64,000 nt of DNA from a virus: the IMG/VR virus record IMGVR_UViG_3300045988_073455; one strand, written 5' to 3'. Both the position numbers and the translations under genes were made by a program. Of this stretch, positions 1,522 through 63,809 are shown in pieces; positions within the stretch are counted from its first letter, which is position 1, and every line of letters starts with the position of its first letter. Under the pieces are notes generated by a model that had not been told where the DNA came from, ran no database searches, and saw only the letters and a list, made by a program, of their open reading frames with translations.

Positions 1522-1547
1522 TATATAAATCTATAAACAAAAGAGCA

Positions 1548-1868
1548 ATGAAGATGTTACAAGACGTTACAGATTGGTTCAAGGCTGAAATTCTTGGCGA
1601 CCAATCATTACAACAGGAAAGAAAGAAACAGAAATCACAGAAAGATTTCGAGAAGCGTATTAATGAAGCAGCTCATCATGTCTGCCTATCCGATCGTCCT
1701 AATGATGATGGGTCTCCATATCCTGTTATCTGCATGGATGGCACCGTTATCTACAAAATCTGCGAGAATCCTCGAATCGAGAAAGGAGAAATCAGCCTTG
1801 AAGATGTAGGGGAAGTTTTGGTAAGACAACGCATTCATTATGCCGAAAACAAGCTGAATTACAGATAG
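1548..1868 (+). CDS. hypothetical protein
   Basis: 106-aa ORF. Its ATG is embedded in AAGAGCAATGAA (start-context motif I). Confidence 0.55.
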   Translation: MKMLQDVTDWFKAEILGDQSLQQERKKQKSQKDFEKRINEAAHHVCLSDRPNDDGSPYPVICMDGTVIYKICENPRIEKGEISLEDVGEVLVRQRIHYAENKLNYR

Positions 1869-1923
1869 TTATGCGGTTTAAAAGTTAAATAAAGTTGCTA
1901 AAAAGCGATTAAAGAAAGTAACG

Positions 1924-1955
1924 TTTGGTCAATCCAAAATTTCTTTGTATCTTTG
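1924..1955 (+). promoter_or_regulatory. class I promoter copy 1 (TTTGGTCA -33 / TATCTTTG -7)
   Basis: TTTG at 1924..1927 and TAtcTTTG at 1948..1955, with a 20-nt spacer. An upstream AAGTTAAAtaAAGTTGC element and a conserved leader ending in TAAGAGCAATG are present. Confidence 0.6.
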
Positions 1956-2005
1956 CATCAGTTAATTAAACAACAAATAAGTTTAACAATTAAATGATAA
2001 GAGCA

Positions 2006-2251
2006 ATGAAAAAGGTAAAGTACGTTATTAAGGCAACAAAGTTCAAAGATAACACATACGAAGATGTTGTTTTTGAAAATCAGCCACTCAGTCAAAAACA
2101 AGAAACATTCAGTGACGTAAAGCACATCTTAGATTTGGATTTCGAGAATGCTTTAGACGAAGGCAAGAAAGTTCAGTATGACGGAGTAGAGCTTGATATC
2201 TTCAATGAAGATGGTACAATTCTTAAAGAATGGATTCAAGACGTAGCATAA
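2006..2251 (+). CDS. hypothetical protein
   Basis: Track ORF 1994..2251. The motif I ATG at 2006 (gaTAAGAGCAATGaaa) is the likely start. Confidence 0.55.
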   Translation: MKKVKYVIKATKFKDNTYEDVVFENQPLSQKQETFSDVKHILDLDFENALDEGKKVQYDGVELDIFNEDGTILKEWIQDVA

Positions 2252-2294
2252 AGGTAATGGGGTGACTAACAATCACTCCACAATATATAGAGCA

Positions 2295-2459
2295 ATGAAA
2301 TACGAAGAAACGTTTAAATCCGAAGTAGCTTCAATTGAAGCTATGCTTTACAAAGCAAAACAACGTAGAAAAGAATATGGTGCATTGAATGCCATCATAT
2401 TCATGAAAGGATGGCTTAAAGTTGTCTACGAAGAACTGAACGATTTCACATTGACTTAA
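2295..2459 (+). CDS. hypothetical small protein, paralog of 17891..18052
   Basis: Motif I ATG at 2295. The protein starts MKYEETFKSEV...FMKGWLKVV and aligns with the product of 17891..18052 (MKYEETFKQQM...YMRGWLKGI). Confidence 0.55.
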   Translation: MKYEETFKSEVASIEAMLYKAKQRRKEYGALNAIIFMKGWLKVVYEELNDFTLT

Positions 2460-10473: not shown

Positions 10474-10731
10474 CACTCCGTAACACCATGTTAAAAGCAG
10501 TTTTTGCGCTTTTCTTGTCAAATTAGCTTCCTGTAGTTTCCTGTAACATTAGTTAAGTTAACGAAACGGCAAAAATCACACATAAGCCTTTCTAAGCTGT
10601 CTATTTTTCTTCTCCATATCCTTATATCATTTTTCAGAAAAAGCCCTATATAGAGGGAAATAGGTTTTATTTAACACACTAGCAATCAATAAGTTATATA
10701 AAGTTAAGCAAGAAAAATAATGAGGTTAAAA

Positions 10732-10763: not shown

Positions 10764-10804
10764 CACTATCAAAAATAAATAATAACAATTAAAAGATAAG
10801 AGCA

Positions 10805-11071
10805 ATGAAACAGACAATAAACGTATCAAACAAAGCTGAGGTTGTAGCAGTAGTTACAAGTGATTTTGATGGAGGTTATAACTATTTCGAAGGTGACATT
10901 CGTAAGGGTAATCTTAGAGCTCATGTAATTAACTACTTCCAAGGTAACAAGTTGAGAATCCAGATTACCTATTGGGAGGATGGCAAAAGTGTGGCAGTTG
11001 AAACCGCTTCAACATGTTCAACAGCAAAGGGAATTGTTAGTAAGGTTTCTAAATTCTTAGATATTAAGTAA
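10805..11071 (+). CDS. hypothetical protein
   Basis: 88 aa. Start is in motif I. Confidence 0.55.
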   Translation: MKQTINVSNKAEVVAVVTSDFDGGYNYFEGDIRKGNLRAHVINYFQGNKLRIQITYWEDGKSVAVETASTCSTAKGIVSKVSKFLDIK

Positions 11072-11122
11072 ATAAAAAGGTAACGGCTGGTCCAACCAAC
11101 TAGTCACAATAAGAGCAATGAA

Positions 11123-11389
11123 ATGTTAGACAGAACAAACATTCACTTTAAGAAAGCAGTTAATGCTGTATTGGTAAAGGTTAGCAGAATACATAACAAT
11201 ACCATATCAGTAAGTATTAACCAAAGATTCATCGACATCACTTTGTTGGATAATAATTCTGGTATTTTTTATTCAGACATGATAAGCCATTTTTTAAGCA
11301 AGGATGAAATCCTTCAGAAGTTAGATAACTTCAATAAAATGTATCACGCATGGGTGCAACTTCAAAAGAAAGGAGGTCGCCATGAGTAA
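11123..11389 (+). CDS. hypothetical protein
   Basis: 88 aa. The motif I ATG at 11118 is out of frame (ATG AAA TGT TAG). The real ATG is 5 nt later. Confidence 0.5.
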   Translation: MLDRTNIHFKKAVNAVLVKVSRIHNNTISVSINQRFIDITLLDNNSGIFYSDMISHFLSKDEILQKLDNFNKMYHAWVQLQKKGGRHE

Positions 11390-11600: not shown

Positions 11601-11625
11601 TAACTGCATATAAAAAGTAAGAGCA

Positions 11626-12645
11626 ATGAAGACAGACAACGTTTTAGAGCATTTCGCTGAAATGATGATTTCACGAATGCAAAAGATGAAGGCAGGAGAT
11701 TGGAAGATGGGTTGGTTCACCACATCTTATGGTGGTAACCCAGTGAACCTTGGAGGGCGTGAATATAATGGAATGAACTCATTCTTCCTGTTCCTCTGCA
11801 TGATGGACGAAGAAAGATTCAAATATCCTATCTTTGCTACCTTCAATCAGATAAAGGCATTAGGAGCTAGTGTGAACAAAGGAGAGAAAAGCTTCCCTGT
11901 TCTGTTTTGGTCCATTCAGTACAAAGACAAGAATGGAAACAAAATAACAGAAGACAGCTACAATGGAATGACTCGATCAGCCCAACTAGACTGCAAAGTC
12001 CAGCCTTTCTTGAAGAGCTACAACGTGTTCAATCTCAGCCAAACCAACCTCGAAGAGATAGCACCTAAGACGATGCAGAAGTTGAAGGAGAAGTTCAGTC
12101 TCAAAGATAAGGATGAGTTGCCGACAGACACGGCTGGTATGTACGTCAACGAGAAAATTGATGATATGCTTCTTTATCAGAAGTGGCTCTGCCCTATCCG
12201 CTACGACAAGTATTCAAGTGGAGCTTTTTACAGATTTGGGGTAGATGATATTACAACACCACTTAAAAGTCAGTTCAAGAAGGGCAATACAGAGCAGGAG
12301 ATATTCGAGGATGGACAGGAGTACTACTCAACCCTTCTACATGAAATGGTTCACTCAACAGGGCATAAGTCTAGATTGAATAGAGGGTTTGAGAATGAGA
12401 AAGGAGAAAAGGACTATGCAAGAGAAGAGTTGGTTGCAGAGCTTGGAGCAGCTCTTATCGGAAACGTCCTAGGCTTTAGCAGTCGCATTTTAGATAATAA
12501 CGCTGCTTACCTAGATGGTTGGATCAGCAAGCTTAAAAAGCAACCAAAGTTCATCGTTTCTGTTTTGACAGACGTAAACAAGGCAGCTAAAATGGTATTA
12601 GAAATCGTGAACAAAGAAAAGGCACAATTACTAATGCCTGCATAA
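11626..12645 (+). CDS. ardC: ArdC-like anti-restriction protein (ssDNA-binding N-domain plus zincin metalloprotease)
   Basis: 339 aa. The N-terminus has the ArdC/DUF1738-like pattern (GGNPVNLGGREYNGMNSFFL), and the C-terminus has HEMVHSTGH (HExxH). Start is in motif I. Confidence 0.75.
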   Translation: MKTDNVLEHFAEMMISRMQKMKAGDWKMGWFTTSYGGNPVNLGGREYNGMNSFFLFLCMMDEERFKYPIFATFNQIKALGASVNKGEKSFPVLFWSIQYKDKNGNKITEDSYNGMTRSAQLDCKVQPFLKSYNVFNLSQTNLEEIAPKTMQKLKEKFSLKDKDELPTDTAGMYVNEKIDDMLLYQKWLCPIRYDKYSSGAFYRFGVDDITTPLKSQFKKGNTEQEIFEDGQEYYSTLLHEMVHSTGHKSRLNRGFENEKGEKDYAREELVAELGAALIGNVLGFSSRILDNNAAYLDGWISKLKKQPKFIVSVLTDVNKAAKMVLEIVNKEKAQLLMPA

Positions 12646-12665
12646 GATATTTTATTGCTCTATCT

Positions 12666-12700
12666 AAGGCGGTATAAGCGGATTTGCTTGTATCGCCTTT
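12666..12700 (+). terminator. intrinsic terminator after ardC
   Basis: AAGGCGGTATAAGC / GCTTGTATCGCCTT form a 14-bp stem (2 G-U pairs) with a 6-nt loop, followed by a T-rich tail. Confidence 0.6.
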
Positions 12701-14773: not shown

Positions 14774-17392
14774 ATGAGACCAAATATCCCCAATCAAAAG
14801 AAAGCATACGATGCTCTGAACAGACGCTTAGTTAACTACGTGGCACAAGTTCTGAGCATTTATGATAGAATCGCTAGCCAAGTTTCTACTGCTATAGATG
14901 GTGTCGGTTATGATGGTTCTGCGGAGTTCTTGTTTGGGGACTATCCAGAACTGAAACAAACCATCAATGGCATCATGATCAGTTATGCTGCACAGATGAA
15001 TAATCTCATCTATGCAGGTACCGCAAATGAGTGGAAAGAAAGTAACATCATGCAGGACCTACTTGCAAGAAAGGTACTTCGTGCTTATGATTTTGAGAAG
15101 GGAGGAGATAAGTACAACAGGTATTTCCAACCTAATTCAGATGCTTTGAAGGCTTTTCAGAATAGGGTTGATAAGGGGTTGTCTGTTTCGCAGAAACTAT
15201 GGTATCAGTCACAAGCCTTGAAAAAGGAGCTGGAGCATACCATATCAACTGCAATAGAAAGAGGGCAGTCTGCGGTTGTTCTCAGCAAGCGAATCAGTAA
15301 GTATCTGTTAGACTATCCTTCATTAAAGGCTGATTATACAGAAAAATTCGGAAAAGCCGCTACATGCGCGAATTGCCAATACGCTTCTATACGTTTGGCA
15401 AGAACCGAGATAAACATGGCTTACCGAAAGGCAGAGCAGACACGTTGGCAACAATTTGACTTCATCTTGGGATATGAGATTAAGTTGAGTAAACGCCATC
15501 CTGCACCAGACATCTGTGATGATTTGTTGGGAATATACCCAAAAGACTTTGTCTTCCTAGGTTGGCATCCTAACTGCATGTGTTATGTTGTACCTATTGT
15601 GATGAGCGATGAAGAGTACTATGGTTCTCCTTCCATTCAGAAGTCAGCTATGATTTCTCGCACCCCAAAGAACTTTAATGACTGGGTACGCAATAACCGC
15701 AGCCGAATCGGGCAAGCTGAAACACTTCCATACTTCTTGAAGGATAACAGAAAGTATTGGCACCTGTCCGTTGAGGACGCGGCTGAGTACCGCCATGCTG
15801 ACAGAGACGAAAAAGCCATAAAGCTTGCTTGGAAGAACAGAGACTTATTGAAATACAACATAGATGTAGATAATTCTGACATAGCAACATTAAGGCGAAA
15901 TGCTAAAGCCTATGAAGTTGATATATCAAGCTTTGAAAAATTCCTCACTACACATCAATTTAAAGAGAGTTTTGGAATGCTGACTGATAGTGAACGTTCT
16001 GTTTTGTCAGATATGTTCGACAAGTATGATGACAAGGTTCGTCAAGCTGTAGAGTATTTCGGCAGGACAAAGAAAAGTTATCTAGCAAAGTTTGATTATA
16101 GCTATAATTTCGGCGATTGGAGGGATGGCATAACTAATAAGTTTGCAAATATCACTCCTACACAATTCGAACCAGTGAGCAAGATAAAACCAAAGTTGAA
16201 GGCTACCTATGATGAAGCTCGTAGGGAACTGCAAGACCTTCGTTCTATTCCGTTGAAGCCTAAGAAGCTAATAGATGATTTCGATGATTGGGAATTGGAG
16301 ACTGCATTAGACGACCAGGAAGCAGTTATGGCAGGAAAGAAACTCATGCAAAATCTGTATGGTCCAAACATTGATAACGTCAATTCTTGGATAAGAGTAG
16401 AATCGGCTCGCATAACAGAAGGCTGGGGCAAGGCTTATGAGGTCTTTCTTGACGAGTATCATAACGGCTTGAAGGAGGTCATGGAAGCTGCTACCCATCT
16501 GAACGAATTGAGAACAGCAGATTTGAGTATTATTCCTACAAGATGGATTCCTCGCTTCAATGATTATATCAAGACTATAGAAACTGCAAGGATTGATGTC
16601 CGAGGTTACGAAAGGGTTTATCGTGAGATAGAGGGTGCGTACAACATCTACAAGCTGTCTTCGGATCAAGATTTGATTGCGTATGGCTTAGATAAGCTAT
16701 CCTTCAATACACCTCATACCATCGTGGAAGGCTTTAGAGGTATTGGATTGAGTCCGACCAAATGGCTCGGAAAGAAAGAGTTTTATGATAGCTTTGACAA
16801 GTTTGTTCCTTGTATTAGCCTTAGCGGAAACAAAGCATACTTTTGGAGCAAATACAATCATGTGCGAATAGACTTCGATGGTCTGAAGGAAAGAATCTTA
16901 AATTCAGAATGGTATCGCAAGGGTCTCCAATATCACGAATACGGACACGCTAAAGCCGCATTACAAGGTAATTGGGAAGAAAATGCAGACTTCAAAAATC
17001 TTTATAAAAGGTTTTTTGCTGACTACAACAAGCCCGAATATAGATACGTAGATGGAGAAGGTGTTTCGCAATGGAAAATCGCTGATAGACTATTTGAAGA
17101 GCTCAAACTCGTAAAAGACAAAACGTATGATGTAATGGAACAATTTGGCAAAATCTCTGATACTTTGCAAGCTATCGACAAAGATCACAACTGGATACAG
17201 GGAATGTTAGGACACGACGTCGATTACTTCGCATCGAGTTCGCATAATTGTTTAGCTGATATTATAGCCCATTTAAGCGAAAATTATTGGTCTAACAATA
17301 AATACTTCAAAAAGGTTTTGCCAAGGCTTTATAATGAAGCTATGGCTCTCTATGAGAAGTATTATAAGCTAAACAAACCGACAAAAAGATAG
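14774..17392 (+). CDS. MuF/SPP1 gp7-like head morphogenesis protein with long C-terminal extension carrying HExxH
   Basis: 872 aa. The MuF core reads ARTEINMAYRKAEQTRWQQ...RHPAPDICDDLLGIYPKDFVFLGWHPNCMCYVVPI. The C-terminal region has GLQYHEYGHAKAAL (HEYGH). Confidence 0.8.
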   Translation: MRPNIPNQKKAYDALNRRLVNYVAQVLSIYDRIASQVSTAIDGVGYDGSAEFLFGDYPELKQTINGIMISYAAQMNNLIYAGTANEWKESNIMQDLLARKVLRAYDFEKGGDKYNRYFQPNSDALKAFQNRVDKGLSVSQKLWYQSQALKKELEHTISTAIERGQSAVVLSKRISKYLLDYPSLKADYTEKFGKAATCANCQYASIRLARTEINMAYRKAEQTRWQQFDFILGYEIKLSKRHPAPDICDDLLGIYPKDFVFLGWHPNCMCYVVPIVMSDEEYYGSPSIQKSAMISRTPKNFNDWVRNNRSRIGQAETLPYFLKDNRKYWHLSVEDAAEYRHADRDEKAIKLAWKNRDLLKYNIDVDNSDIATLRRNAKAYEVDISSFEKFLTTHQFKESFGMLTDSERSVLSDMFDKYDDKVRQAVEYFGRTKKSYLAKFDYSYNFGDWRDGITNKFANITPTQFEPVSKIKPKLKATYDEARRELQDLRSIPLKPKKLIDDFDDWELETALDDQEAVMAGKKLMQNLYGPNIDNVNSWIRVESARITEGWGKAYEVFLDEYHNGLKEVMEAATHLNELRTADLSIIPTRWIPRFNDYIKTIETARIDVRGYERVYREIEGAYNIYKLSSDQDLIAYGLDKLSFNTPHTIVEGFRGIGLSPTKWLGKKEFYDSFDKFVPCISLSGNKAYFWSKYNHVRIDFDGLKERILNSEWYRKGLQYHEYGHAKAALQGNWEENADFKNLYKRFFADYNKPEYRYVDGEGVSQWKIADRLFEELKLVKDKTYDVMEQFGKISDTLQAIDKDHNWIQGMLGHDVDYFASSSHNCLADIIAHLSENYWSNNKYFKKVLPRLYNEAMALYEKYYKLNKPTKR

Positions 17393-17851: not shown

Positions 17852-17890
17852 CACTATCAAAATAAAAATAACAATTAAAAGATAAGAGCA

Positions 17891-18052
17891 ATGAAATACG
17901 AAGAAACGTTTAAACAACAAATGGTAGTAATTGAAGCCATGGTAGAAAAGACCAAAAAGGCGAAGGAAGAGAACTGCGACCTTTATGCTCTCATTTACAT
18001 GAGGGGATGGCTTAAAGGAATTGTAGATGATTTGGATAAGATTATCCCTTAA
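17891..18052 (+). CDS. hypothetical small protein (53 aa), paralog of 2295..2459
   Basis: Hand-translated MKYEETFKQQMVVIEAMVEKTKKAKEENCDLYALIYMRGWLKGIVDDLDKIIP. Motif I start. Below the ORF-track cutoff. Confidence 0.55.
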   Translation: MKYEETFKQQMVVIEAMVEKTKKAKEENCDLYALIYMRGWLKGIVDDLDKIIP

Positions 18053-18481: not shown

Positions 18482-18528
18482 GAAGGAAATGGTAGGGCTA
18501 ACCACCCTACCTCAATACGATAAGAGCA

Positions 18529-19692
18529 ATGAATACGATAAAGACGTTTATTCCATCAGAGTCAGTTGACGCATTTAAGAAGTTCGCTGAGAAGACAAAG
18601 CGCAATGTAGAAGGTTTCGACTACACCATTAGTAACCCACGAAAAAAGTTATTCCGTCATGCGGTAGTAGAAGATTGTCAAACCATCATTGGGAAGTATT
18701 GGCATGACATCTGTGACCTCACCATCAATATGCCAGACGAAAGTAATTGGAGATTGCTGGCCACATATAAGAATGGAGCCTTTACTCCTGCTGATACAAC
18801 CAAGGAGTTGGTATTCAAGATTAAGGAGCATGGAGCTGATTACGGCAAATGCGACCTATGTGGTCATTGGTGTAACAACGCATACGTAATCGAGAATACG
18901 CAAACTGGCGATGAACTGCAAGTAGGTTGCGAGTGCATAAAAAAGTTCGGATTGAAGTACATTGACTTCCTCTCAGACTTTACACGCAAACTTTATGAGA
19001 CCTACGACCACACCATCAGATATGCCACCGATGATGACTATGGAGACCTTATTCCAATTTGGGGTGGTCCTAAGGATAGTAGATATACGGATGCCATCTT
19101 GAAGAATGACATGATCGCCATGTGCAAGGCTCAGTATGACGAGTGCCCTGTTTACAAGAAAGGCTATTACGCAAATGGTCACTATTACCCATCAGAAACA
19201 ATCGCCAAATTAGAGGAAATAAGAGATTCTAAGAAGTTTACGGTTGACTCCTCATACATAACAAAGGTCTGCGATTTTGCGCTCTCTAAAGAGCCTAAAT
19301 CGCAATTCGAGGTTGAAATGCAGAAAGTAGCAAATGACTACTACACATTCTCGGAGCAGTTCGTTTATGCTTTCTTCCTGGTGAAGAACTACGAGGATAG
19401 CTTAAAAGGTGGTATTGATGCCATCAAGAAAGGTATGCAAGTCAAGGTAGTCGGTAAAGTCATTCAACAGCGCACAGAGCAGTCTTACTACGGAGAAATG
19501 GTCACAAACACCATCCTTACTAAAAACGGAATAGTCTGTGAAAGGGTTGGCAAAATACCAACTGCACAAAAAGATGGCGAGAAGACCACCGAGTTCTATG
19601 CTATCGTCAAGGGTTTGTTCAATGGAAAGGTTTGCCTAGACAGAGCTACTAAGAATCCAAAGAAAGGAATTGAAGTGGCTATGGAGATTTAG
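18529..19692 (+). CDS. hypothetical protein with Cys cluster
   Basis: 387 aa. Contains CDLCGHWCNN...VGCECIKKFG, a possible zinc ribbon. Motif I start. Confidence 0.65.
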   Translation: MNTIKTFIPSESVDAFKKFAEKTKRNVEGFDYTISNPRKKLFRHAVVEDCQTIIGKYWHDICDLTINMPDESNWRLLATYKNGAFTPADTTKELVFKIKEHGADYGKCDLCGHWCNNAYVIENTQTGDELQVGCECIKKFGLKYIDFLSDFTRKLYETYDHTIRYATDDDYGDLIPIWGGPKDSRYTDAILKNDMIAMCKAQYDECPVYKKGYYANGHYYPSETIAKLEEIRDSKKFTVDSSYITKVCDFALSKEPKSQFEVEMQKVANDYYTFSEQFVYAFFLVKNYEDSLKGGIDAIKKGMQVKVVGKVIQQRTEQSYYGEMVTNTILTKNGIVCERVGKIPTAQKDGEKTTEFYAIVKGLFNGKVCLDRATKNPKKGIEVAMEI

Positions 19693-20474: not shown

Positions 20475-20485
20475 AAGTTAGAGCA

Positions 20486-21034
20486 ATGGAACAGAAGTTA
20501 TTAGATTTGATTATCCATATAGGACAAGTTAGAGGTTGGGCTGTAGATGCTACAGATAATGGCAATGACTTTGCCTACATCTTCTTTCAGCGTTATTCTC
20601 CTGCTGGTCAAGATTTCAACATGTCAATCGAAATGCCAAACAATGACCCGAATGAGTTTTTGAAGAACCTCGATGATTACTACGAGAACTTCGATCCAGA
20701 TAGTGAAGCCCTAAACCGGTGTGACAAAGAAGGTCATGGTATAAATGGAGCACCCAAACGCTTGAAGGATATCATCATTGATTTCGAGGAAATCGAAAAG
20801 GAAATCAAAGAACTCCTAGAAGTGTTCAATCTTCAAATAGAGGAACTAGAGAAAGCTGCCATTCACAAGGTTAAAGTGCAAGTCACCGAATACCTGCAAA
20901 AGGTAGTGGAGGTTGATGCCATCAATGGCAGTGACGCATGCGATAAAGTCGAAGAAATGGTTAATGGATCAGAAATCATCTTGACAGCAGACGATTTCAC
21001 AACAAGAAACATTGAGCCTTATGAAGATAAGTAA
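20486..21034 (+). CDS. hypothetical acidic protein
   Basis: 182 aa. Start lies in TTAGAGCAATGG, a motif I variant. Confidence 0.6.
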   Translation: MEQKLLDLIIHIGQVRGWAVDATDNGNDFAYIFFQRYSPAGQDFNMSIEMPNNDPNEFLKNLDDYYENFDPDSEALNRCDKEGHGINGAPKRLKDIIIDFEEIEKEIKELLEVFNLQIEELEKAAIHKVKVQVTEYLQKVVEVDAINGSDACDKVEEMVNGSEIILTADDFTTRNIEPYEDK

Positions 21035-21272: not shown

Positions 21273-21382
21273 GTTAGCAAAAAGTACTTTATGCTCAAAA
21301 CGTTTGGTCATTTGCAAAAAAATGATTACCTTTGCACTATCAAAAATAAATAATAACAATTAAAAGATAAGAGCAATGAAAC
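21241..21382 (+). repeat. direct repeat copy L (gene 3' end plus class I promoter plus leader)
   Basis: Near-identical to 30867..31014. There is one mismatch over roughly the first 107 nt, then small indels. Confidence 0.85.
21303..21334 (+). promoter_or_regulatory. class I promoter copy 4
   Basis: TTTGGTCA at 21303 and TAccTTTG at 21327..21334. Confidence 0.65.
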
Positions 21383-21654
21383 GATTTGAAGATTACGAAA
21401 AAGCTTATAATAAATGCTATGAACTTTTGCAAAAACTCACAGCATTGATAAAAGAGACAGATGGCAACCTCACTATCGAGATAAGATTTACTTATATTGA
21501 CAAATATCCAATGCTTTCTGTTAAATACTATTGTAATTACCTATACTCATTTCTTCCACAAGAAGATGGTACATTTATTATTTCTACAGACAATAAAATC
21601 TATACAATGGATGAAATTGAGGCGAAGATAAGAAAGAATTGTTATTTAGACTAA
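21376..21654 (+). CDS. hypothetical protein
   Basis: 92 aa. Motif I start with 16-nt complementarity to the candidate sRNA at 30682..30697. Confidence 0.55.
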   Translation: MKRFEDYEKAYNKCYELLQKLTALIKETDGNLTIEIRFTYIDKYPMLSVKYYCNYLYSFLPQEDGTFIISTDNKIYTMDEIEAKIRKNCYLD

Positions 21655-21666
21655 AATATAAGAGCA

Positions 21667-22011
21667 ATGAAACTGATTACGAAAGAAATTAAGAAGAGAC
21701 TGGAAAAATATCCTCTCTACTCGCAGGATGGTAAAAAGGAAGAAGCCATCTGTCAAGCAAAGTTCTTCCTTTGTGTTGGTGCATGGTCTTGGTTCATATT
21801 GGAAGCAGACCTAGAGAACAATATCGCCTACGGAATCACTATCAATGGAAGTGGTGAAGGCGAGTACGGCTACACAAGCTTAACCGAGTTGCAGGGGCTA
21901 ACAACTAAGTTAGGCTTAACCGTAGAGCGAGACACCTCATTCTCCCCTACTCCACTAAAGGATATTAATAACGAATATCTAAAGAAGTTTCTTAAGAAAA
22001 TGTACGCTTGA
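21667..22011 (+). CDS. DUF2958-like protein
   Basis: KYPLYSQDGKKEEAICQAKFFLCVGAWSWFILEAD...YGYTSLTELQ matches the DUF2958 pattern as I recall it. Motif I start. Confidence 0.55.
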   Translation: MKLITKEIKKRLEKYPLYSQDGKKEEAICQAKFFLCVGAWSWFILEADLENNIAYGITINGSGEGEYGYTSLTELQGLTTKLGLTVERDTSFSPTPLKDINNEYLKKFLKKMYA

Positions 22012-22573: not shown

Positions 22574-22646
22574 GCGGAGATAGCTCAGTTAGCAGAGCGC
22601 AGTGATACCATCACTGAGGTCGTTGGTGCGGCTCCAACTCTCCGCT
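22574..22646 (+). tRNA. non-canonical tRNA-Gly-like, anticodon ACC
   Basis: 73-nt cloverleaf. Acceptor GCGGAGA/TCTCCGC with discriminator U. D arm GCTC-AGTTAGCA-GAGC lacks G18G19. Anticodon arm CAGTG-ATACCAT-CACTG. T arm GTTGG-TGCGGCT-CCAAC has no TTC. Confidence 0.6.
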
Positions 22647-22651
22647 CTTTT

Positions 22652-22725
22652 GCGGGTATAGCTCAGTCGGTCAGAGCGTTACATTCCCAATGTGAAGGTC
22701 GAAGGTTCGAGTCCCTCTAGCCGCT
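22652..22725 (+). tRNA. tRNA-Gly (anticodon CCC) with stem mismatches
   Basis: Acceptor GCGGGTA/TAGCCGC has a G5.G68 mismatch, discriminator U. Anticodon loop TTCCCAA. T arm GAAGG-TTCGAGT-CCCTC has an A51.C63 mismatch. Confidence 0.7.
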
Positions 22726-22754
22726 CTATTTTTGTAGAATTAAAATAAAAGAGC

Positions 22755-29112: not shown

Positions 29113-30627
29113 ATGTCAGAACAGAAAGCAATAAAAAAAATGATTGCATGGCGCAATGATTGGTGTCTCTTCGCTAAGGAAGTCTTGAAGGCTCGCCTTG
29201 ACGAAGAGCAAAAGGCTATATTGCGTTCTGTTCAAAAGAACAAAATGACAACGGTAGCCAGTGGAACTGCAAGGGGTAAGGACTTCATCGCTGCCGTAGC
29301 CGCTTTATGTTTTCTATACCTCACTCCTCGCTTCGGCAAGGATGGTAGTTTAGAAAAGAACACCAAGATTGCCCTTACAGCACCAACAGGAAGACAGGTA
29401 ACAAACATCATGATACCAGAAGTGGCACGTCTTTACAAAAAGGCAGGCTTCCTGCCTGGTCGTTTGCTGTCGGATGGCATCAGAACTGATTATGAGGAAT
29501 GGTATCTGACAGGTTTCAAATCTTCAGCCGACAACACAGAGGCTTGGTCGGGATTCCATGCTGTAAACACCATGTTCATCGTAACAGAAGCATCCGGTAT
29601 CTCGGACACCATCTATAATGCAATCGAGGGTAACCTGCAAGGTAACTCTCGATTGCTATTGGTATTCAACCCAAACGTTACTACAGGGTATGCAGCCAAC
29701 TCCATGAAGTCTCCCAGATTCAAGAAGTTTAGATTATCATCTCTCAACGCAGAGAACGTAGTAAGCAAGAAAAACATTATCCCTGGTCAAGTTGACTATG
29801 AATGGGTATCCGATAAGGTCTCAGCATGGGCACAGAAGATCAGAAAGTCTGAGTTTGATGAAGGTCGTGGTGATTTTGTGTGGGAAGGTGGATATTACAC
29901 TCCAAATGACCTTTTTCGTGTTAAGGTTCTCGGTATGTTTCCGAAGGTGTCCGAAGATACCCTCATTCCATACGAATGGTGCGAGATTGCCCATAGAAGA
30001 TGGAAGGAACTTAAAGATAGTGGCTTTATCACCCATAAGCCAATACGCTTAGGTGTCGATGTCGCAGGTATGGGTCGCGATAGGTCTTGCTATGTTCCAC
30101 GACAAGGAAATTATGTTTCAGAAATCAAGTGTCATAATTCGGGTGGTCATGCGGACCACATGGCAGTCGCAGGTCAAGTCGCACACTACCTAAGTTTGAG
30201 TTCAAAGAATAAAGCATTCATTGATACCATTGGAGAAGGTGCTGGAGTTTATTCAAGACTCATAGAGCAAAAGTATTTAACTGCATTCTCTTGCAAGTTC
30301 TCGGAAGGCGTGAGAAACAAGCATGATGTGACAGGCTGCTACTCTTTCGCTAACATGAGGGCTTATCTGTTTTGGTGCATACGTGACTGGCTCAACCCAA
30401 AGAATGGATTCTTTGCAGCACTCCCACCTGACGATGAGTTGGATCAAGAATTGTGCGAAGTGCATTGGCTGTTTCAGTCAGATGGTTCAATCATCATGGA
30501 ACCAAAAGACGAAATCAAGAAGCGTCTGAAACGTTCTCCCGACAAGATGGATGCCCTTGCCAACACCTTCTATCCATACGACTTCGATAGAGACAATGAT
30601 TTGCAATTGTTAAATAGTATAGTATAA
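29113..30627 (+). CDS. terL: terminase large subunit
   Basis: 504 aa. Has a Walker-A-like ASGTARGKDF, a Walker-B-like MFIVTEA, and the nuclease-domain start LGVDVAGMGRDRS. Confidence 0.8.
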   Translation: MSEQKAIKKMIAWRNDWCLFAKEVLKARLDEEQKAILRSVQKNKMTTVASGTARGKDFIAAVAALCFLYLTPRFGKDGSLEKNTKIALTAPTGRQVTNIMIPEVARLYKKAGFLPGRLLSDGIRTDYEEWYLTGFKSSADNTEAWSGFHAVNTMFIVTEASGISDTIYNAIEGNLQGNSRLLLVFNPNVTTGYAANSMKSPRFKKFRLSSLNAENVVSKKNIIPGQVDYEWVSDKVSAWAQKIRKSEFDEGRGDFVWEGGYYTPNDLFRVKVLGMFPKVSEDTLIPYEWCEIAHRRWKELKDSGFITHKPIRLGVDVAGMGRDRSCYVPRQGNYVSEIKCHNSGGHADHMAVAGQVAHYLSLSSKNKAFIDTIGEGAGVYSRLIEQKYLTAFSCKFSEGVRNKHDVTGCYSFANMRAYLFWCIRDWLNPKNGFFAALPPDDELDQELCEVHWLFQSDGSIIMEPKDEIKKRLKRSPDKMDALANTFYPYDFDRDNDLQLLNSIV

Positions 30628-30628
30628 A

Positions 30629-30660
30629 TTTGCAAGATACAGAAAAGTTTTGTAACTTTG
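30629..30660 (+). promoter_or_regulatory. promoter of candidate sRNA R1
   Basis: TTTG at 30629..30632 and TAacTTTG at 30653..30660, 20-nt spacer. Confidence 0.55.
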
Positions 30661-30666
30661 CAGCCG

Positions 30667-30732
30667 AAACGTTACCTTTAACGTTTCATTGCTCTTAGTG
30701 CACTCCGACCGTGAGGTTAGAGTGCATTTTTT
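30667..30732 (+). ncRNA. candidate sRNA R1 (seed antisense to start-context motif I)
   Basis: 5' hairpin AAACGTT/AACGTTT. Then CGTTTCATTGCTCTTA (30682..30697), of which CATTGCTCTTA (30687..30697) is unpaired. Terminator stem TGCACTC/GAGTGCA followed by T6 (30727..30732). Confidence 0.5.
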
Positions 30733-30866
30733 ATTTAATATAAAGTAATTCAGAAAAAGACTATACACTTCAATATAAGCCTTTCTAAGCGGTTCATTTT
30801 TTATCTCCATATAACTTATACCATTTTTAAGAAATAGACTTACATACACAAAATTAATAGTTTGAC

Positions 30867-31014
30867 ATAAGTATCTGAATAACAATAAGTTAAACTAAGT
30901 TAGCAAAAAGTACTTTATGCTCAAAACATTTGGTCATTTGCAAAAAAATGATTACCTTTGCACTATCAAAAATAAAATAACAATTTAAAAGATAGGAGAT
31001 AAGAGCAATGAAAC
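30867..31014 (+). repeat. direct repeat copy R (orphan gene 3' end plus class I promoter plus leader)
   Basis: Near-identical to 21241..21382. It includes the last 32 nt of gene 21021..21272 without the rest of that gene. Confidence 0.85.
30929..30960 (+). promoter_or_regulatory. class I promoter copy 5
   Basis: TTTGGTCA at 30929 and TAccTTTG at 30953..30960. Confidence 0.65.
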
Positions 31015-31421
31015 TAATTGGAATGGAAACGTCAGATTATAACGAAACACGTTATATACAATGTGAGACAATGGAAGAATACAACGATGTTTTGAAACGT
31101 GAAAAGAGTAAACACGGAATTAAAAATGGTGCAGATGTTACCACTTACGTTTACGAAACATCAAATTCTTCAAAAGTTGCAGGAAAAGTCATTAATACAA
31201 ACCTTGAAGTTGAAATCTACTATACTGGCGCAAAATTTCGTGAACTCTATGCAAAACCATCTACAAATCCAGAAATAGATAGAGAAGTAAAAGCTCATGA
31301 GGTGTATGGAGGCTGCGGCATAATCACATATAAGGAGAAAGGTATCTCAAAACAATACTATGGTGTTGGGCATAAAACATTCAACACCAAGAAAGAAGCG
31401 AAAAAATATATTGATGAGTAA
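31008..31421 (+). CDS. hypothetical protein
   Basis: 137 aa. Motif I start. Confidence 0.55.
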   Translation: MKLIGMETSDYNETRYIQCETMEEYNDVLKREKSKHGIKNGADVTTYVYETSNSSKVAGKVINTNLEVEIYYTGAKFRELYAKPSTNPEIDREVKAHEVYGGCGIITYKEKGISKQYYGVGHKTFNTKKEAKKYIDE

Positions 31422-31437
31422 TTAAAAGATAAGAGCA

Positions 31438-31656
31438 ATGAACGTTTACACAGAATCAGATAGATATACGGTATTACTTCACGCATTCGACACTTTTGAA
31501 GGTGCTTGTGAGTATATAACTCAAATTATAAATGTATGGGAGTGTAAGGTTCTCCCCCTCATAAAAGCATGGAATGACGGTGTGGTTACAGCTAAATGGA
31601 TGGCTAAGAAAACCGAAAAAGGAATAAAATTTGAATTGTTGGATAGCAATGTTTAA
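31438..31656 (+). CDS. hypothetical protein
   Basis: 72 aa. Motif I start. Confidence 0.5.
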   Translation: MNVYTESDRYTVLLHAFDTFEGACEYITQIINVWECKVLPLIKAWNDGVVTAKWMAKKTEKGIKFELLDSNV

Positions 31657-32194: not shown

Positions 32195-32209
32195 AAATAA
32201 GATAGAGCA

Positions 32210-32386
32210 ATGGAAGAGAACGTTATCATAGCAATGGATGCCGAAAAGTCTAAAAAGATAAAAGGCATTCCTTCAAGTTGGGACTGGGAAGATATTCATT
32301 TCTACCTCATTACTGAATTGGGATTCAATTTTGATGTTGTGTTCAATTATTCAAAAGACATAGAGGAGGTATCTTATGAAGGATAA
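32210..32386 (+). CDS. hypothetical small protein (58 aa)
   Basis: Hand-translated MEENVIIAMDAEKSKKIKGIPSSWDWEDIHFYL... Start lies in ATAGAGCAATGG, a motif I variant. Confidence 0.4.
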   Translation: MEENVIIAMDAEKSKKIKGIPSSWDWEDIHFYLITELGFNFDVVFNYSKDIEEVSYEG

Positions 32387-33236: not shown

Positions 33237-33270
33237 CTATTTGTTGATTAAATAATATTTCGTATATTTG
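33237..33270 (+). promoter_or_regulatory. class II promoter copy 3 (structural operon)
   Basis: CTATTTGTTGATTAAATA at 33237..33254 and TAtaTTTG at 33263..33270. The upstream AAAATAATTTCTCACTTTTTTT is shared with the copy at 22011. Confidence 0.65.
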
Positions 33271-33277
33271 CACCCAT

Positions 33278-33378
33278 AAAAGCGTGTGAAGATGCACGTG
33301 ACAGAACTTTTCGTAACATTGCTCTTACACCGAGTTCTACGTTTGGTCTGCCTGCATTTCGCTCGCAGACCATTTTTT
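33278..33378 (+). ncRNA. candidate sRNA / terminated leader R2 (loop antisense to start-context motif I)
   Basis: Hairpin AGAACT(33303..08)/AGTTCT(33333..38) displays CATTGCTCTTA (33317..33327) in its loop. Terminator GGTCTGC/GCAGACC (33345..33371) followed by T6 (33373..33378). Confidence 0.5.
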
Positions 33379-33400: not shown

Positions 33401-34135
33401 ATGAACAAGTATTACAGAAAAGTTCTTGAAGCACTGAAAACCAATCGAGACATTAAGGCATTGGGGTTCAGTCGTAAGGAGTTAAAGGGTGTTGCCGCCA
33501 ATGTTGCCAACAAACTTCAACTCAAAGATGATGCTACTGACGAAGAAGTTAGTGAAGGTATTAGTGACGCAATTGATGATGTCTTGCCGTTACTCCAGTT
33601 AACTCAGTCCGCAGCTGACCGCCAAGTCTCAGAGTACAAAAACGCTCATCCTGCACCCGATGATGACGATGATCCAGATGACGATCCAGATGATGATGAC
33701 GATCCAGCACGTAGAAGTCCGTCACGGAAGGGCAAGAAGGGCAAGAAGGATAGCGATGATGATGACTCCGCTACCCTCAACGCAATCAAGGAACTTACGA
33801 AGGCTGTTGCTACACTCCAAGGTGATGTAACTGCATTGAAGTCTGGCAATACCACAAACAGCCGTACCGCAAAGGTAAGGGAACTGCTGAAGGACACAGG
33901 TAAGTTCGGAGAGCGTCGACTTAAATCTTTCTCTCACATGAAGTTTGAGAATGAAGAGGAGTTTGAGGACTACCTCGATGAGTTGAAGGAAGATATTGAG
34001 GAAGAGAACAAGGAAAGACTTGAAAAGGGTCTTGAAAAGCTTGGACGAATCCCTGCTCCCGATACCAAACCTCAGCCAAAGGAGGAAGATAAGTTAATGT
34101 CTGATGATGAAGTCAAGAGGCTGGCTAAGATGTAA
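33401..34135 (+). CDS. putative scaffolding protein
   Basis: ATG at 33401 within track ORF 33377..34135. Highly charged and helical, with a D/P low-complexity tract (DDDDDPDDDPDDDDDP). Lies upstream of the capsid gene. Confidence 0.55.
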   Translation: MNKYYRKVLEALKTNRDIKALGFSRKELKGVAANVANKLQLKDDATDEEVSEGISDAIDDVLPLLQLTQSAADRQVSEYKNAHPAPDDDDDPDDDPDDDDDPARRSPSRKGKKGKKDSDDDDSATLNAIKELTKAVATLQGDVTALKSGNTTNSRTAKVRELLKDTGKFGERRLKSFSHMKFENEEEFEDYLDELKEDIEEENKERLEKGLEKLGRIPAPDTKPQPKEEDKLMSDDEVKRLAKM

Positions 34136-38194: not shown

Positions 38195-38302
38195 ACCCAA
38201 GTAGCTCAGTTGGTTAGAGCGAGACCAAAGTCCGTCACATGAAATCCAGTTGGTCTTTAAAAAGCTGGTTGAAAGACGCAGGTTCGAGTCCTGCCTTGGG
38301 TG
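38195..38302 (+). ncRNA. tRNA-like element with expanded, non-canonical anticodon/variable region
   Basis: Acceptor ACCCAAG/CTTGGGT, D arm GCTC-AGTTGGTTA-GAGC and T arm GCAGG-TTCGAGT-CCTGC are canonical. The 51 nt between them (38222..38272) do not form a 5-bp/7-nt anticodon arm. Confidence 0.55.
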
Positions 38303-56955: not shown

Positions 56956-57016
56956 CTATTTGATGATTAAATATTTTGTTGTATATTTGCAGCGTTATTG
57001 TTTAATCATCAAATAG
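56956..57016 (+). promoter_or_regulatory. class II promoter copy 4 (lysis) bracketed by a perfect 16-nt inverted repeat
   Basis: CTATTTGATGATTAAA (56956..56971), TAtaTTTG (56982..56989), TTTAATCATCAAATAG (57001..57016). Confidence 0.65.
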
Positions 57017-62636: not shown

Positions 62637-63809
62637 TTACTGAAAAATATAGTCTATAACCTTCCTATTTGCATCATCAATTTTTTGCTGATTGAAATTG
62701 ATGTAAACCAGTGTCACTTTTGCACCTGTAGAGAAAGAATGTCCTAGGGCATGGCTTATCACATCAACGGGTATATCGAGTTCGCTAGCAATTGTTGCCC
62801 AAGTATGACGAGCCCAGTAAGATGTTAGATTATCAAAACCTTCAATGCTTTGTAATATCTTTCCCCATGATGCAGTAAACGTATGGACGCTTGCGTATTG
62901 ATCGAGAATGCAGAGTAGATGCTTTCTCCCTCTATATTTGTCTATGATGGCTAACGCTTCGGGCTCAACTTTGATGCTATATAGCTTCTGTGTCTTTTGT
63001 CGTTTATAGTGTATATAGCCATCTTGCCCTATCTCAGTGAGGTTGCAAAGGTCAGCTACATTGATGCCTATAAGAAACAAGGATAGTTTGAACATATCGA
63101 CAGCCATGGTTTGCTTCTCGCTCCCATGGAAAGAAAATAATCGGTGCAATTCGTCAATAGTCAGAGAACGCTTAATTGTAGGCTCAGACTTGATCTTGAA
63201 TACCCGAAAAGGATAAGACATAGTTATCTCATTTGCCATGGCATCACGAAATACAGCTCTGATATTGCGAAAATGAATACTCCTTCCATTTACAGACGGA
63301 GAAGATTGAAGAAGAAACGCATCAAAACCACTAAGCCAATCCTTAGTAATATCCTCGAAAGTTTTCGTCTTAATCTTAGCATCATACTCAGCCATACGTT
63401 TTGCAGTTACAAGATAAATCTCCTTCGTCCTCTTAGCAGTGCGTGATTCTGCATAAGACAGGAAACGGCTGTAAAAGCCATTTGCGGTTACTACGGTTGG
63501 CTCCATGATTTCTACAACCTTGTTTTTAATTTGTGTAGCTGTCAATTTGGTTAACTCACCTTTCTTCAATAATTCGAGAACGATATTTGATACTGTGCTT
63601 TTTTGGGTATCAATATAGCTCTGCAGGTTTGCTTTGTCTGGTCTATTCTTGATGCGTTCCTTACTTGTGTCCCATTGAGTTGGTAATATCTTCACACCAA
63701 GATTGATGTACGCAGAAGAGCCCTGTTTGTTAATACCAATTTTAAGAGGGGCTTCATCACCTCTCTTAGAACTACGCTTATCTAAGTATATGTGAATTGT
63801 TACTGCCAT
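62637..63809 (-). CDS. int: tyrosine recombinase / phage integrase
   Basis: 390 aa. N-terminal SAM-like region, C-terminal ARHTWATIASELDIPVDVISHALGH...LVYI. Adjacent to a tRNA gene. Confidence 0.9.
   Translation of the reverse strand: MAVTIHIYLDKRSSKRGDEAPLKIGINKQGSSAYINLGVKILPTQWDTSKERIKNRPDKANLQSYIDTQKSTVSNIVLELLKKGELTKLTATQIKNKVVEIMEPTVVTANGFYSRFLSYAESRTAKRTKEIYLVTAKRMAEYDAKIKTKTFEDITKDWLSGFDAFLLQSSPSVNGRSIHFRNIRAVFRDAMANEITMSYPFRVFKIKSEPTIKRSLTIDELHRLFSFHGSEKQTMAVDMFKLSLFLIGINVADLCNLTEIGQDGYIHYKRQKTQKLYSIKVEPEALAIIDKYRGRKHLLCILDQYASVHTFTASWGKILQSIEGFDNLTSYWARHTWATIASELDIPVDVISHALGHSFSTGAKVTLVYINFNQQKIDDANRKVIDYIFQ

Follow-up and report, generated by a model that had tools for sequence, protein, structure and literature searches.

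Regulation of many mRNAs by one small RNA (sRNA) is exemplified by GcvB of Enterobacteria, whose targets share a C/A-rich element near their start sites and are repressed together. Here we describe two candidate sRNAs, R1 and R2, in a stretch of viral DNA (IMG/VR record IMGVR_UViG_3300045988_073455; 64,000 nucleotides (nt), hereafter the window). Both carry the same short seed, and the exact antisense of this seed, a tag of the form (UAA)GAGCAAUG(AAA), extends over the AUG in about 15 of the phage's own small early or accessory genes. The likeness to GcvB lies in one short single-stranded seed and an element common to many mRNA start regions. GcvB, however, is chromosomal, Hfq-dependent and directed at host transporter targets, and its element is degenerate and lies upstream of the AUG, whereas the element facing R1 and R2 includes the AUG and is nearly exact, and regulator and targets are all phage-encoded. 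The promoter boxes of the window are of the Bacteroidota type (TTTG ... TAnnTTTG). To our knowledge, Bacteroidota are without Hfq and the phylum is largely without Shine-Dalgarno pairing; masking of the AUG would thus be a natural control point there.

Among phage systems, the P1/P7 c4 and P4 CI RNAs present exposed loops that pair in trans with repeated sites on phage mRNAs, blocking lytic or antirepressor functions. They resemble R1 and R2 as phage-encoded small RNAs with exposed loops that address the phage's own mRNAs. Unlike R1 and R2, they are processed from the operon they control, use two sites on one transcript and act partly by premature termination, whereas the sites facing R1 and R2 comprise about 15 start codons in at least five transcription units, and neither RNA has an Rfam match to the C4 family. 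In T4, the translational repressor RegA and the endoribonuclease RegB recognize a short motif in many early mRNA start regions for joint shut-off, the same logic as proposed here but executed by proteins rather than RNA. Phage lambda provides the pR'-6S RNA-tR' late leader and N/boxB antitermination. R2 is like lambda 6S in being a short, promoter-proximal terminated transcript before late structural genes, and its GAAGNN loop resembles the nutL boxB (GAAGA); it differs in that no antiterminator was identified, no search having been made for a Q-like or N-like gene. We know of no seed in lambda 6S against a set of phage start regions, and R1 does not have a 6S-type position.

On the host side, GibS of Bacteroides thetaiotaomicron has been reported to pair with start regions. 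MasB (BTnc201, RF04177) is an sRNA of the same species (PMC10994844). GibS and MasB belong to the same phylum as R1 and are built alike, with a TAnnTTTG promoter, a hairpin at the 5' end, a single-stranded stretch and then an intrinsic terminator; they differ as host genes with a few host targets. R1 was considered as a member of RF04177 and rejected: it scored 23 bits against a gathering threshold of 105 (E = 0.56 over 3 kb and 0.038 over 200 nt), and the aligned part was mainly the terminator. Rfam 15 gave no match over R1 or R2 at the gathering score, the only such matches in the window being tRNAs, and between 30500 and 33500 nothing beyond the BTnc201/MasB match appeared at E < 0.5, C4 antisense RNA included. 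The part of a 2025 review drawn on here (PMC12197685) describes VpdS, PreS, 24B_1, sar, sas, OOP and STnc6030 as phage RNAs that regulate by base pairing, and lists lambda 6S as Hfq-bound. Like R1 and R2, these RNAs are phage-encoded and base-pairing, with sar acting at a start region and STnc6030 in superinfection exclusion; unlike them, the RNAs in that part of the review are cis-antisense to one gene or address few mRNAs, and none there is paired with a tag on a dozen phage starts. Our literature searches returned no description of such a system.

Anatomy and conservation of R1 and R2

The two units and their promoters are placed as follows.

30629..30660, + strand: R1 promoter (-33 TTTG at 30629-30632, 20-nt spacer, -7 box TAACTTTG at 30653-30660)
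30666..30733, + strand: R1, candidate sRNA of ~66-68 nt, delimited by fold and conservation
33238..33270, + strand: class B promoter driving R2 (TATTTGTTGATTAAATA at 33238-33254, -33 TTTG at 33240-33243, 19-nt spacer, -7 box TATATTTG at 33263-33270)
~33276..33378, + strand: R2, candidate second seed RNA and 5' leader of the scaffold-like/capsid operon, delimited by fold and conservation

An earlier note on this DNA had proposed R1 as a global sRNA switch of translation. The promoter it placed after terL, with TTTG at 30629, the -7 box at 30653 and a 20-nt spacer, is as described, and directly abuts the terL stop codon (stop at 30627). The layout of the unit also stands in its hairpin, unpaired stretch and T6, with two corrections: the unit begins 5 nt rather than 7 nt past the -7 box, at the foot of hairpin 1, and the terminator stem has 9+4 bp rather than 7 bp. 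In the predicted fold of 30664-30736, hairpin 1 (GAAACGUUA/UAACGUUUC, 9 bp) occupies 30666-30687 and the terminator hairpin 30697-30728, the latter with a GUGA loop and followed by T6 (30727-30732). The seed UUUCAUUGCUCUUA spans 30684-30697; its unpaired part, the nine bases AUUGCUCUU at 30688-30696, has an unpaired probability of ~1.0. The minimum free energy is -27.9 kcal/mol (z = -7.9), and none of 200 shuffled sequences folded as well.

R1 is also the 3' end of the terL transcription unit. As the earlier note had stated, no open reading frame (ORF) lies on the + strand of R1; a - strand ORF opposite it (30610-30885) is disrupted by an 11-nt indel in relatives. With its own promoter, an intrinsic terminator and no conserved ORF, R1 is a predicted independent unit. 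Two other roles were considered and set aside. For a coding role, the - strand ORF 30610-30885 and the micro-ORFs MKR* (R1) and 23 aa (R2) are not conserved. A cis-antisense RNA like sar, OOP or a type I antitoxin would need a conserved gene opposite R1, where there is none; the sites complementary to R1 are 0.3-29 kb away on the same strand.

R2 shares only the seed with R1, and the folds differ. It opens with a 5' hairpin bearing a GAAG loop (33282-33299), followed by a central hairpin (33303-33338) that presents CAUUGCUC in its loop, the seed occupying 33317-33327, and by a terminator in which GGTCTGC (33345-33351) pairs with GCAGACC (33365-33371) ahead of T6 at 33373-33378. Thus (UUU)CAUUGCUC(UUA) is displayed by each RNA in an unpaired stretch or loop. 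R2 ends ~20 nt upstream of gene 33401, and the order class B promoter, R2, terminator, scaffold-like gene (33401) and major capsid gene (34607) is that of a promoter-proximal terminated late leader. The hairpin that opens R2, N6-GAAGNN-N6' with co-varying stems and a conserved GAAG loop, also precedes portal and Bro-like genes, 10-15 nt before the ATG, in many related phages (L073:12710, L212:19641, L214:17790, L232:11994, L254:12782, L265:12346 and others). By analogy with the lambda nutL boxB (GAAGA), an antiterminator or some other RNA-binding protein may bind there.

Relatives were collected by TerL-anchored searches, which yielded 80 close loci and then clades of rising distance; most loci span only ~20 kb of each relative's genome. 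A scan of genome contigs gave four distant loci (Prevotella, Bacteroidales, Paludibacter and Geofilum), L082 being a Prevotella genome bin with a TerL 65% identical, and the phages collection returned three unannotated fragments only. Hundreds of IMG/VR phages and one Prevotella bin carry R1 after terL and R2 before the scaffold-like/capsid genes, down to ~65% TerL identity. The R1 unit lies 3' of terL in the window family, the L050 group, L082, L205-211, L260-264 and most of L267-L304, and L082 keeps the order terL, R1, class A promoter cassette (see below) with TAAGAGCAATG, R2 and scaffold-like gene.

In all clades the -7 box TAnnTTTG precedes the first G of hairpin 1 by 4-5 nt. The ends of hairpin 1 are fixed (it starts GAAA and finishes UUUC), and its interior varies with full compensation: CGUU/AACG, UCGU/ACGA, ACAC/GUGU, GCUG/CAGU and AUGUCA/UGAUGU. 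In an alignment of 17 distinct R1 homologues from at least five clades, 98% of cells were paired, versus 68.7% in shuffles (0/500 reached the observed value) and 38-46% in slid controls; both sides had changed in 13 of the 18 stem pairs, and the covariation score was 0.777 versus 0.246 in shuffles (0/500 reached 0.777). While the stems co-vary, UUUCAUUGCUC stays fixed, and CAUUGCUC (columns 38-45) is invariant across the 17 homologues, L071 excepted; between clades with turned-over stems, no part of R1 is better conserved than the unpaired 11 nt. Because the 17 homologues had partly been found via the seed, the search was repeated independently of it, with the terminator loop, the -7 box and the T run as anchors. 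It recovered 102 R1 units, 100 of which carry TTCATTGCTC; the other two, in L037 and L071, have C-to-T changes. A scan of viral contigs with a 15-mer of the terminator loop gave mostly chance matches. On these comparative data, R1 behaves as a real, selected, structured RNA gene.

For R2, the N6-GAAGNN-N6' hairpin served as the seed-independent anchor. In each clade with a visible scaffold-like gene, the unit sits immediately before that gene, and a pattern scan found one R2 type in at least 120 IMG/VR contigs. Pairing is complete (100%) in the 5' hairpin and terminator base of R2, where four pairs differ on both sides, and the central stem is compensated (AGAACU/AGUUCU, AGAACC/GGUUCU, AGAGCUG/CAGUUCU). 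The loop retains CAUUGCUC, and the loop flanks differ between clades.

Departures from the common seed are C-to-U changes in the R1 of L037 (CATTGCTT) and L071 (CATTGTTT) and in the R2 of L264 (CATTGTTT) and L269 (TATTGTTC). Within the 8-nt core, seven of eight substitutions are C-to-U opposite a tag G and retain G-U pairing; the eighth, G-to-C in the R2 of L035, is disruptive. The R2 of L062 has a 5-nt deletion in the seed, and L263 has lost the R2 seed hairpin with R1 intact. Wobble-compatible change of this kind is expected of RNA-RNA pairing, for which it is suggestive only.

The start-codon tag and its distribution

Tagged starts in the window are listed by position, all on the + strand.

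1540..2300, + strand: three early-region tagged starts (1548 with AAAGAGCAATG, 2006 with TAAGAGCAATG, 2295 with ATAGAGCAATG)
10797..10812, + strand: tagged start of gene 10805 (88 aa), first in a class A operon; 15 bp with R1
11110..11125, + strand: tagged start at 11118; gene ATG 11123 out of frame and partly covered by the duplex
11618..11633, + strand: tagged start of ardC (11626-12645), protein with ArdC-N and zincin-like peptidase domains
17883..17898, + strand: tagged start of gene 17891 (53 aa), first in a class A operon
18521..18536, + strand: tagged start of gene 18529 (387 aa)
20478..20493, + strand: variant tag TTAGAGCAATGG of gene 20486, DpnD/PcfM-like
21368..21383, + strand: tagged start of gene 21376 (92 aa), first in a class A operon; perfect 16-nt R1 complement
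21659..21674, + strand: tagged start of gene 21667 (DUF2958)
31000..31015, + strand: tagged start of gene 31008 (137 aa), first in a class A operon just 3' of R1
31430..31445, + strand: tagged start of gene 31438 (72 aa)
32202..32215, + strand: variant tag ATAGAGCAATGG of gene 32210 (58 aa)

With up to one mismatch, the + strand holds 13 copies of the tag TAAGAGCAATG, of which 12 lie at gene starts and one (53308) within coding sequence; as an 11-mer with up to one mismatch the tag has 15 occurrences against 2.3 expected. The 16-mer TAAGAGCAATGAAACG has 13 matches with up to three mismatches against 1.14 expected. The antisense of TAAGAGCAATG has two copies only in the window, those of R1 and R2. 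The form GAGCAATG is found 18 times on the + strand versus twice in antisense; its background in 120 unrelated viral loci is ~0.3 per 10 kb per strand. The tag is enriched ~ninefold in the phage itself and confined to one gene class.

Complementarity to R1 reaches 16/16 with gene 21376, 15 with genes 10805, 21667 and 31008, and 12-14 with genes 1548, 2006, 2295, 11118/11123, 11626, 17891, 18529 and 31438, and is weaker with 20486, 32210 and 4470. The AUG lies within the duplex at every tagged site. These lengths and the coverage of the AUG bear out what the earlier note had reported for its list of genes, except in part for gene 11123, where the complementarity holds and the tag ATG (11118) opens an upstream ORF (uORF), the gene's own ATG being only partly covered. 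This uORF has three codons (MKC, stop), and the 88-aa gene begins 5 nt later, at 11123; the 11118 ATG may be a decoy start or a coupled start. With the exception of 11118, the ORFs translated from each tag ATG are real. Duplex prediction against the phage start regions, which the earlier note had suggested, agreed with this picture and set the tagged starts clearly apart: with the R1 seed region, 15 of 95 start regions come to -15.5 kcal/mol or better, as do 2.2% of random windows; for a shuffled seed the mean is 0.87.

The tagged set comprises ArdC, DpnD/PcfM-like and DUF2958 proteins and many small proteins without known function; no structural gene in the window carries the tag. No other start context has antisense copies in the window or in the diverged loci, and the repeated cassette of L066 itself (AAAACGATTATG) has no antisense copy. 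Among degenerate, wobble-type seeds the window holds 16 matches, none convincing beyond R1 and R2. One such form of the seed core, UAUUGUUU at 56996-57003, lies 5 nt past the class B promoter 56957, in the 5' untranslated region (5'UTR) of gene 57024, and is probably due to chance in a window with 16 such degenerate matches. The earlier note had also pointed to a weaker third copy at about 12655; it amounts to TATTGCTCT only, which is not above chance as an 8-mer and is not kept in L367, a diverged ArdC locus of 73% identity. This sequence lies in the 3'UTR of ardC, just before the terminator (12653-12695), and is kept in close relatives, with a variant TATTGCCCT; L367 has TATTGCAGC.

Promoters of the window fall into two classes.

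10759, 17847, 21330 and 30956: class A promoter copies; the tag always follows, ending a ~45-nt UTR
30885..31007, + strand: class A promoter and 5'UTR cassette (AAGTTA direct repeats, -33 TTTG at 30929-30932, -7 box TACCTTTG at 30953-30960, tag at the UTR end)
12769 (portal), 22040, 33238 (R2) and 56957, also ~44358: class B promoter copies (TATTTGTTGATTAAATA ... TAtnTTTGCA), before late-looking units

Class A is a repeated ~130-nt cassette of AAGTTA direct repeats, a TTTG/TAcCTTTG promoter and a UTR. All four copies, the further ones ending at 10804, 17890 and 21375, end in the tag, which never follows a class B promoter. The operon-internal genes 11626, 18529, 21667 and 31438 are also tagged and have unrelated upstream sequences; the tag is therefore not merely a duplicated UTR. 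The AAGTTAAACTAAGTTAGC direct repeats ahead of the class A promoters have an operator-like look. A conserved block of ~100 nt (30760-30860 and 10560-10680) separates R1, or the preceding gene, from the class A cassette. A - strand micro-ORF (MEIKNEPLRKAY... / MEKKNRQLRKAYV) may be present in this block, and its motif CTCCATATACTTAC is retained in diverged relatives.

Tagged starts occur in all seed-bearing clades, including L082; L227-L305 have 3-5 per 21 kb, and the L205/L209 clade has at least eight GAGCAATGA gene starts. The tag GAGCAATGAAA persists on small accessory genes (ArdC, DpnD/PcfM-like, DUF2958), and ardC keeps (T/C)AAGAGCAATG at 73% protein identity despite a different upstream sequence. 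Loss of the seed and absence of the tag were seen together. In L066 and L067 (TerL 78%) only the terminator half of R1 remains, promoter, hairpin 1 and seed being gone, and the 21.5 kb sampled yielded no tagged genes. The R2-type leader of L207 lacks the seed hairpin, and the tag is absent from the 13.5 kb sampled. In L214- and L232-type phages a gene stands in place of R1; after contig extension, the L232 type showed R2 with CATTGCTCTAAGAG 11.6 kb further on at 17 of 18 loci, the contig of the eighteenth ending before the R2 position. Relatives that keep the start motif and lack any antisense copy, named in the earlier note as a pattern contrary to its proposal, were not encountered: at least one seed RNA was present wherever there were tagged genes and inspectable canonical sites, and the loci, which mostly cover ~20 kb per genome, gave no clear example of a tag-rich phage that lacks a seed RNA.

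Two observations concern the neighbourhood of these units. Among phages with 99-100% identical TerL (L001-L065), the R1-R2 interval ranges from 1.7 to 3.3 kb, and the small-gene cassettes within it differ, most of them beginning with the tag; this variation points to rapid cassette exchange. Two contigs, IMGVR_UViG_3300045988_141804 (L050 and L066) and IMGVR_UViG_3300045988_113792 (L038 and L071), each hold two diverged terL copies ~22 kb apart, one of them with an intact R1 and tagged genes; at the other copy, R1 is decayed or its seed is a wobble variant, and the sampled DNA has no tagged genes. These contigs could be tandem prophages or chimeric assemblies.

Proposed mechanism and competing explanations

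The observation itself is confirmed, and the proposal built on it is partly supported: a conserved structured RNA, a selected anti-tag seed and a tag on early and accessory genes all stand, and the third copy is not supported. We consider it probable, at roughly 60%, that R1 and R2 of this temperate gut Bacteroidales siphophage are trans-acting sRNAs with a common seed, by which the AUG of tagged mRNAs is masked. R1 would be transcribed from a host-type promoter of its own, located at the terL end, and would use the terminator it shares with the terL transcript, in which respect it resembles a 3'UTR-type sRNA with its own promoter; R2 would be released from the scaffold-like/capsid operon as its terminated, promoter-proximal leader. 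A duplex of 9-16 bp over the start codon would keep the 30S subunit from binding, and the whole tagged gene set would be silenced together. The most likely timing is a shut-off of early and anti-defence genes once late transcription rises, which is favoured because both seeds sit within late transcription units; silencing in the lysogen, or of superinfecting relatives, would be the alternative.

Several points weigh against this proposal. As an 8-mer, CATTGCTC occurs twice on one strand of the 64 kb, which is background frequency, so that significance rests on the 11-mer, its location and its conservation. Seed and tag are both invariant and show no compensatory change; the co-variation that the earlier note had suggested looking for in relatives did not appear, and an association of the flanks (CUCUA versus UAGAG) was weak and not significant. 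C-to-T is in any case the commonest type of mutation, which bears on the wobble-compatible seed changes. Loss of the seed in one of the two RNAs is tolerated, that of R2 in L035, L062 and L263 and that of R1 in the L214 and L232 types, and the seed-bearing L071 and L206 have no tagged genes in the limited DNA available. A duplex longer than ~10 nt would need R1 to unfold hairpin 1. R1, R2 and the tagged genes alike are served by promoters of host type, which therefore do not fix the timing. What the sequences show is the anatomy and conservation of the two RNAs, the constancy of the seed, and the enrichment of the tag and its restriction to one gene class; expression, pairing in vivo, repression and timing are inferred from them.

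The same data were weighed under other explanations. R2 and its seed might act mainly in cis as a leader in the manner of lambda pR'-6S-tR', serving late antitermination, with the seed perhaps pairing with AAGCAAUGA at 33401 and R1 being the terL terminator region only. We regard this as unlikely. It would account for the constant position of R2 directly upstream of the scaffold-like gene, for the recurrence of the GAAG hairpin in the seedless leaders of portal and Bro-like genes, and for the 7-8 nt match at the beginning of gene 33401 (AAGCAATGA). That match is absent elsewhere, however (ACAATGG in L267 and L274, CATCATGG in L206), and a cis-acting leader explains neither R1, with its own conserved promoter, invariant seed and no gene directly downstream, nor the full complement on ~15 distant genes; leader and trans roles are, moreover, compatible. 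R1 and R2 might instead be real sRNAs whose main targets are host mRNAs or a host RNA with GAGCAAUG, the phage starts being competitors, sponges or simply a favoured context. DicF is a prophage sRNA that acts on host genes. In the part of the review drawn on here (PMC12197685), the prophage sRNAs PreS and VpdS often do so as well, and AGAGCAATG starts are found sporadically in more distant seedless phages such as L073 and L066. The ~ninefold enrichment of the tag in the phage, in one gene class only, and the joint absence of seed RNAs and tagged genes from the DNA sampled of L066, L067 and L207 speak against host targets as the main ones, and we hold this to be quite improbable.

A further explanation would turn the 8-11 nt element into a DNA site, or a recombination or cassette junction, that is read both ways, such as an operator or a short homology by which moron cassettes are shuffled, the antisense copies being further sites or relics of inverted duplication. 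The class A promoter/UTR cassette is indeed repeated four times, and tag-led cassettes are swapped within an R1-R2 distance of 1.7-3.3 kb in near-identical phages. Yet the tag always encloses the ATG and runs in the direction of the genes (18 on the + strand versus 2 in antisense), both antisense copies lie in unpaired RNA flanked by co-varying stems, seed changes are nearly all wobble-compatible C-to-U, and no - strand ORF is conserved behind the antisense copies, all of which makes a DNA site very improbable. An inversion or shufflon was considered separately and rejected, no inverted isoforms being present among ~200 related loci. Least probable in our estimate is a coincidence or by-product, in which R1 is the structured 3' end of the terL mRNA without a trans function. 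The background frequency of the antisense core as an 8-mer fits this, as does the terminator, which terL needs anyway and which L066 has kept. Against it, conservation within R1 is highest in the unpaired 11 nt while the stems have turned over, the loop of an unrelated RNA bears the same sequence, and both the -7 box and its spacing are conserved. None of these explanations accounts for two unrelated RNAs that keep the same unpaired 8-11 nt at such depth together with the tag.

Trans-acting repression by R1 and R2 can be extended to a wider, more speculative scheme, to which we give less than even odds. A large family of temperate phages of gut Bacteroidales would use an "address tag" system, in which early, accessory or anti-defence genes with a start in GAGCAAUGAAA are controlled by two non-homologous sRNAs sharing an anti-tag seed. 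Seeds placed in late units would silence early genes automatically, a resident prophage could silence the tagged genes of related phages that enter the cell (RNA-based cross-immunity), and new cassettes would become regulated by carrying the tag, which fits the shuffling of cassettes between R1 and R2. If the pairing is real, this would be the first post-transcriptional regulon described, as far as our searches show, for phages of the dominant human-gut phylum, and it would amount to plug-in control of a changing accessory gene set via a short start-codon tag. As a marker, the tag could then point to candidate early or anti-defence genes across hundreds of uncultured phages of the gut, and the seed-tag pair could serve as a compact, portable translational off-switch for Bacteroides and Prevotella engineering.

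Gene map of the window and further observations

The 64 kb window has 40% G+C, and its genes lie nearly all on the + strand. Judged by PHROG and Pfam matches, it is a temperate siphophage, with the following landmarks from the same matches.

96: DnaD-like replication gene
11626: ArdC
12820: portal
14774: minor head protein with an ADP-ribosyltransferase match
23809: amidoligase
25877: ParB-like gene
29113-30627: TerL
33401: scaffold-like gene
34607: major capsid gene
39120: tape measure gene
62637-63809, - strand: integrase

The 872-aa head-morphogenesis or minor head protein (14774-17392) also matches a PHROG annotated as Bxa ADP-ribosyltransferase, and may be an injected effector fused to a head protein. 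A tRNA-like Rfam match of 108 nt (38195-38302), without an ARAGORN call, overlaps the start of ORF 38239. Two adjacent tRNA-Gly genes, with anticodons ACC and CCC, lie at 22574-22726.

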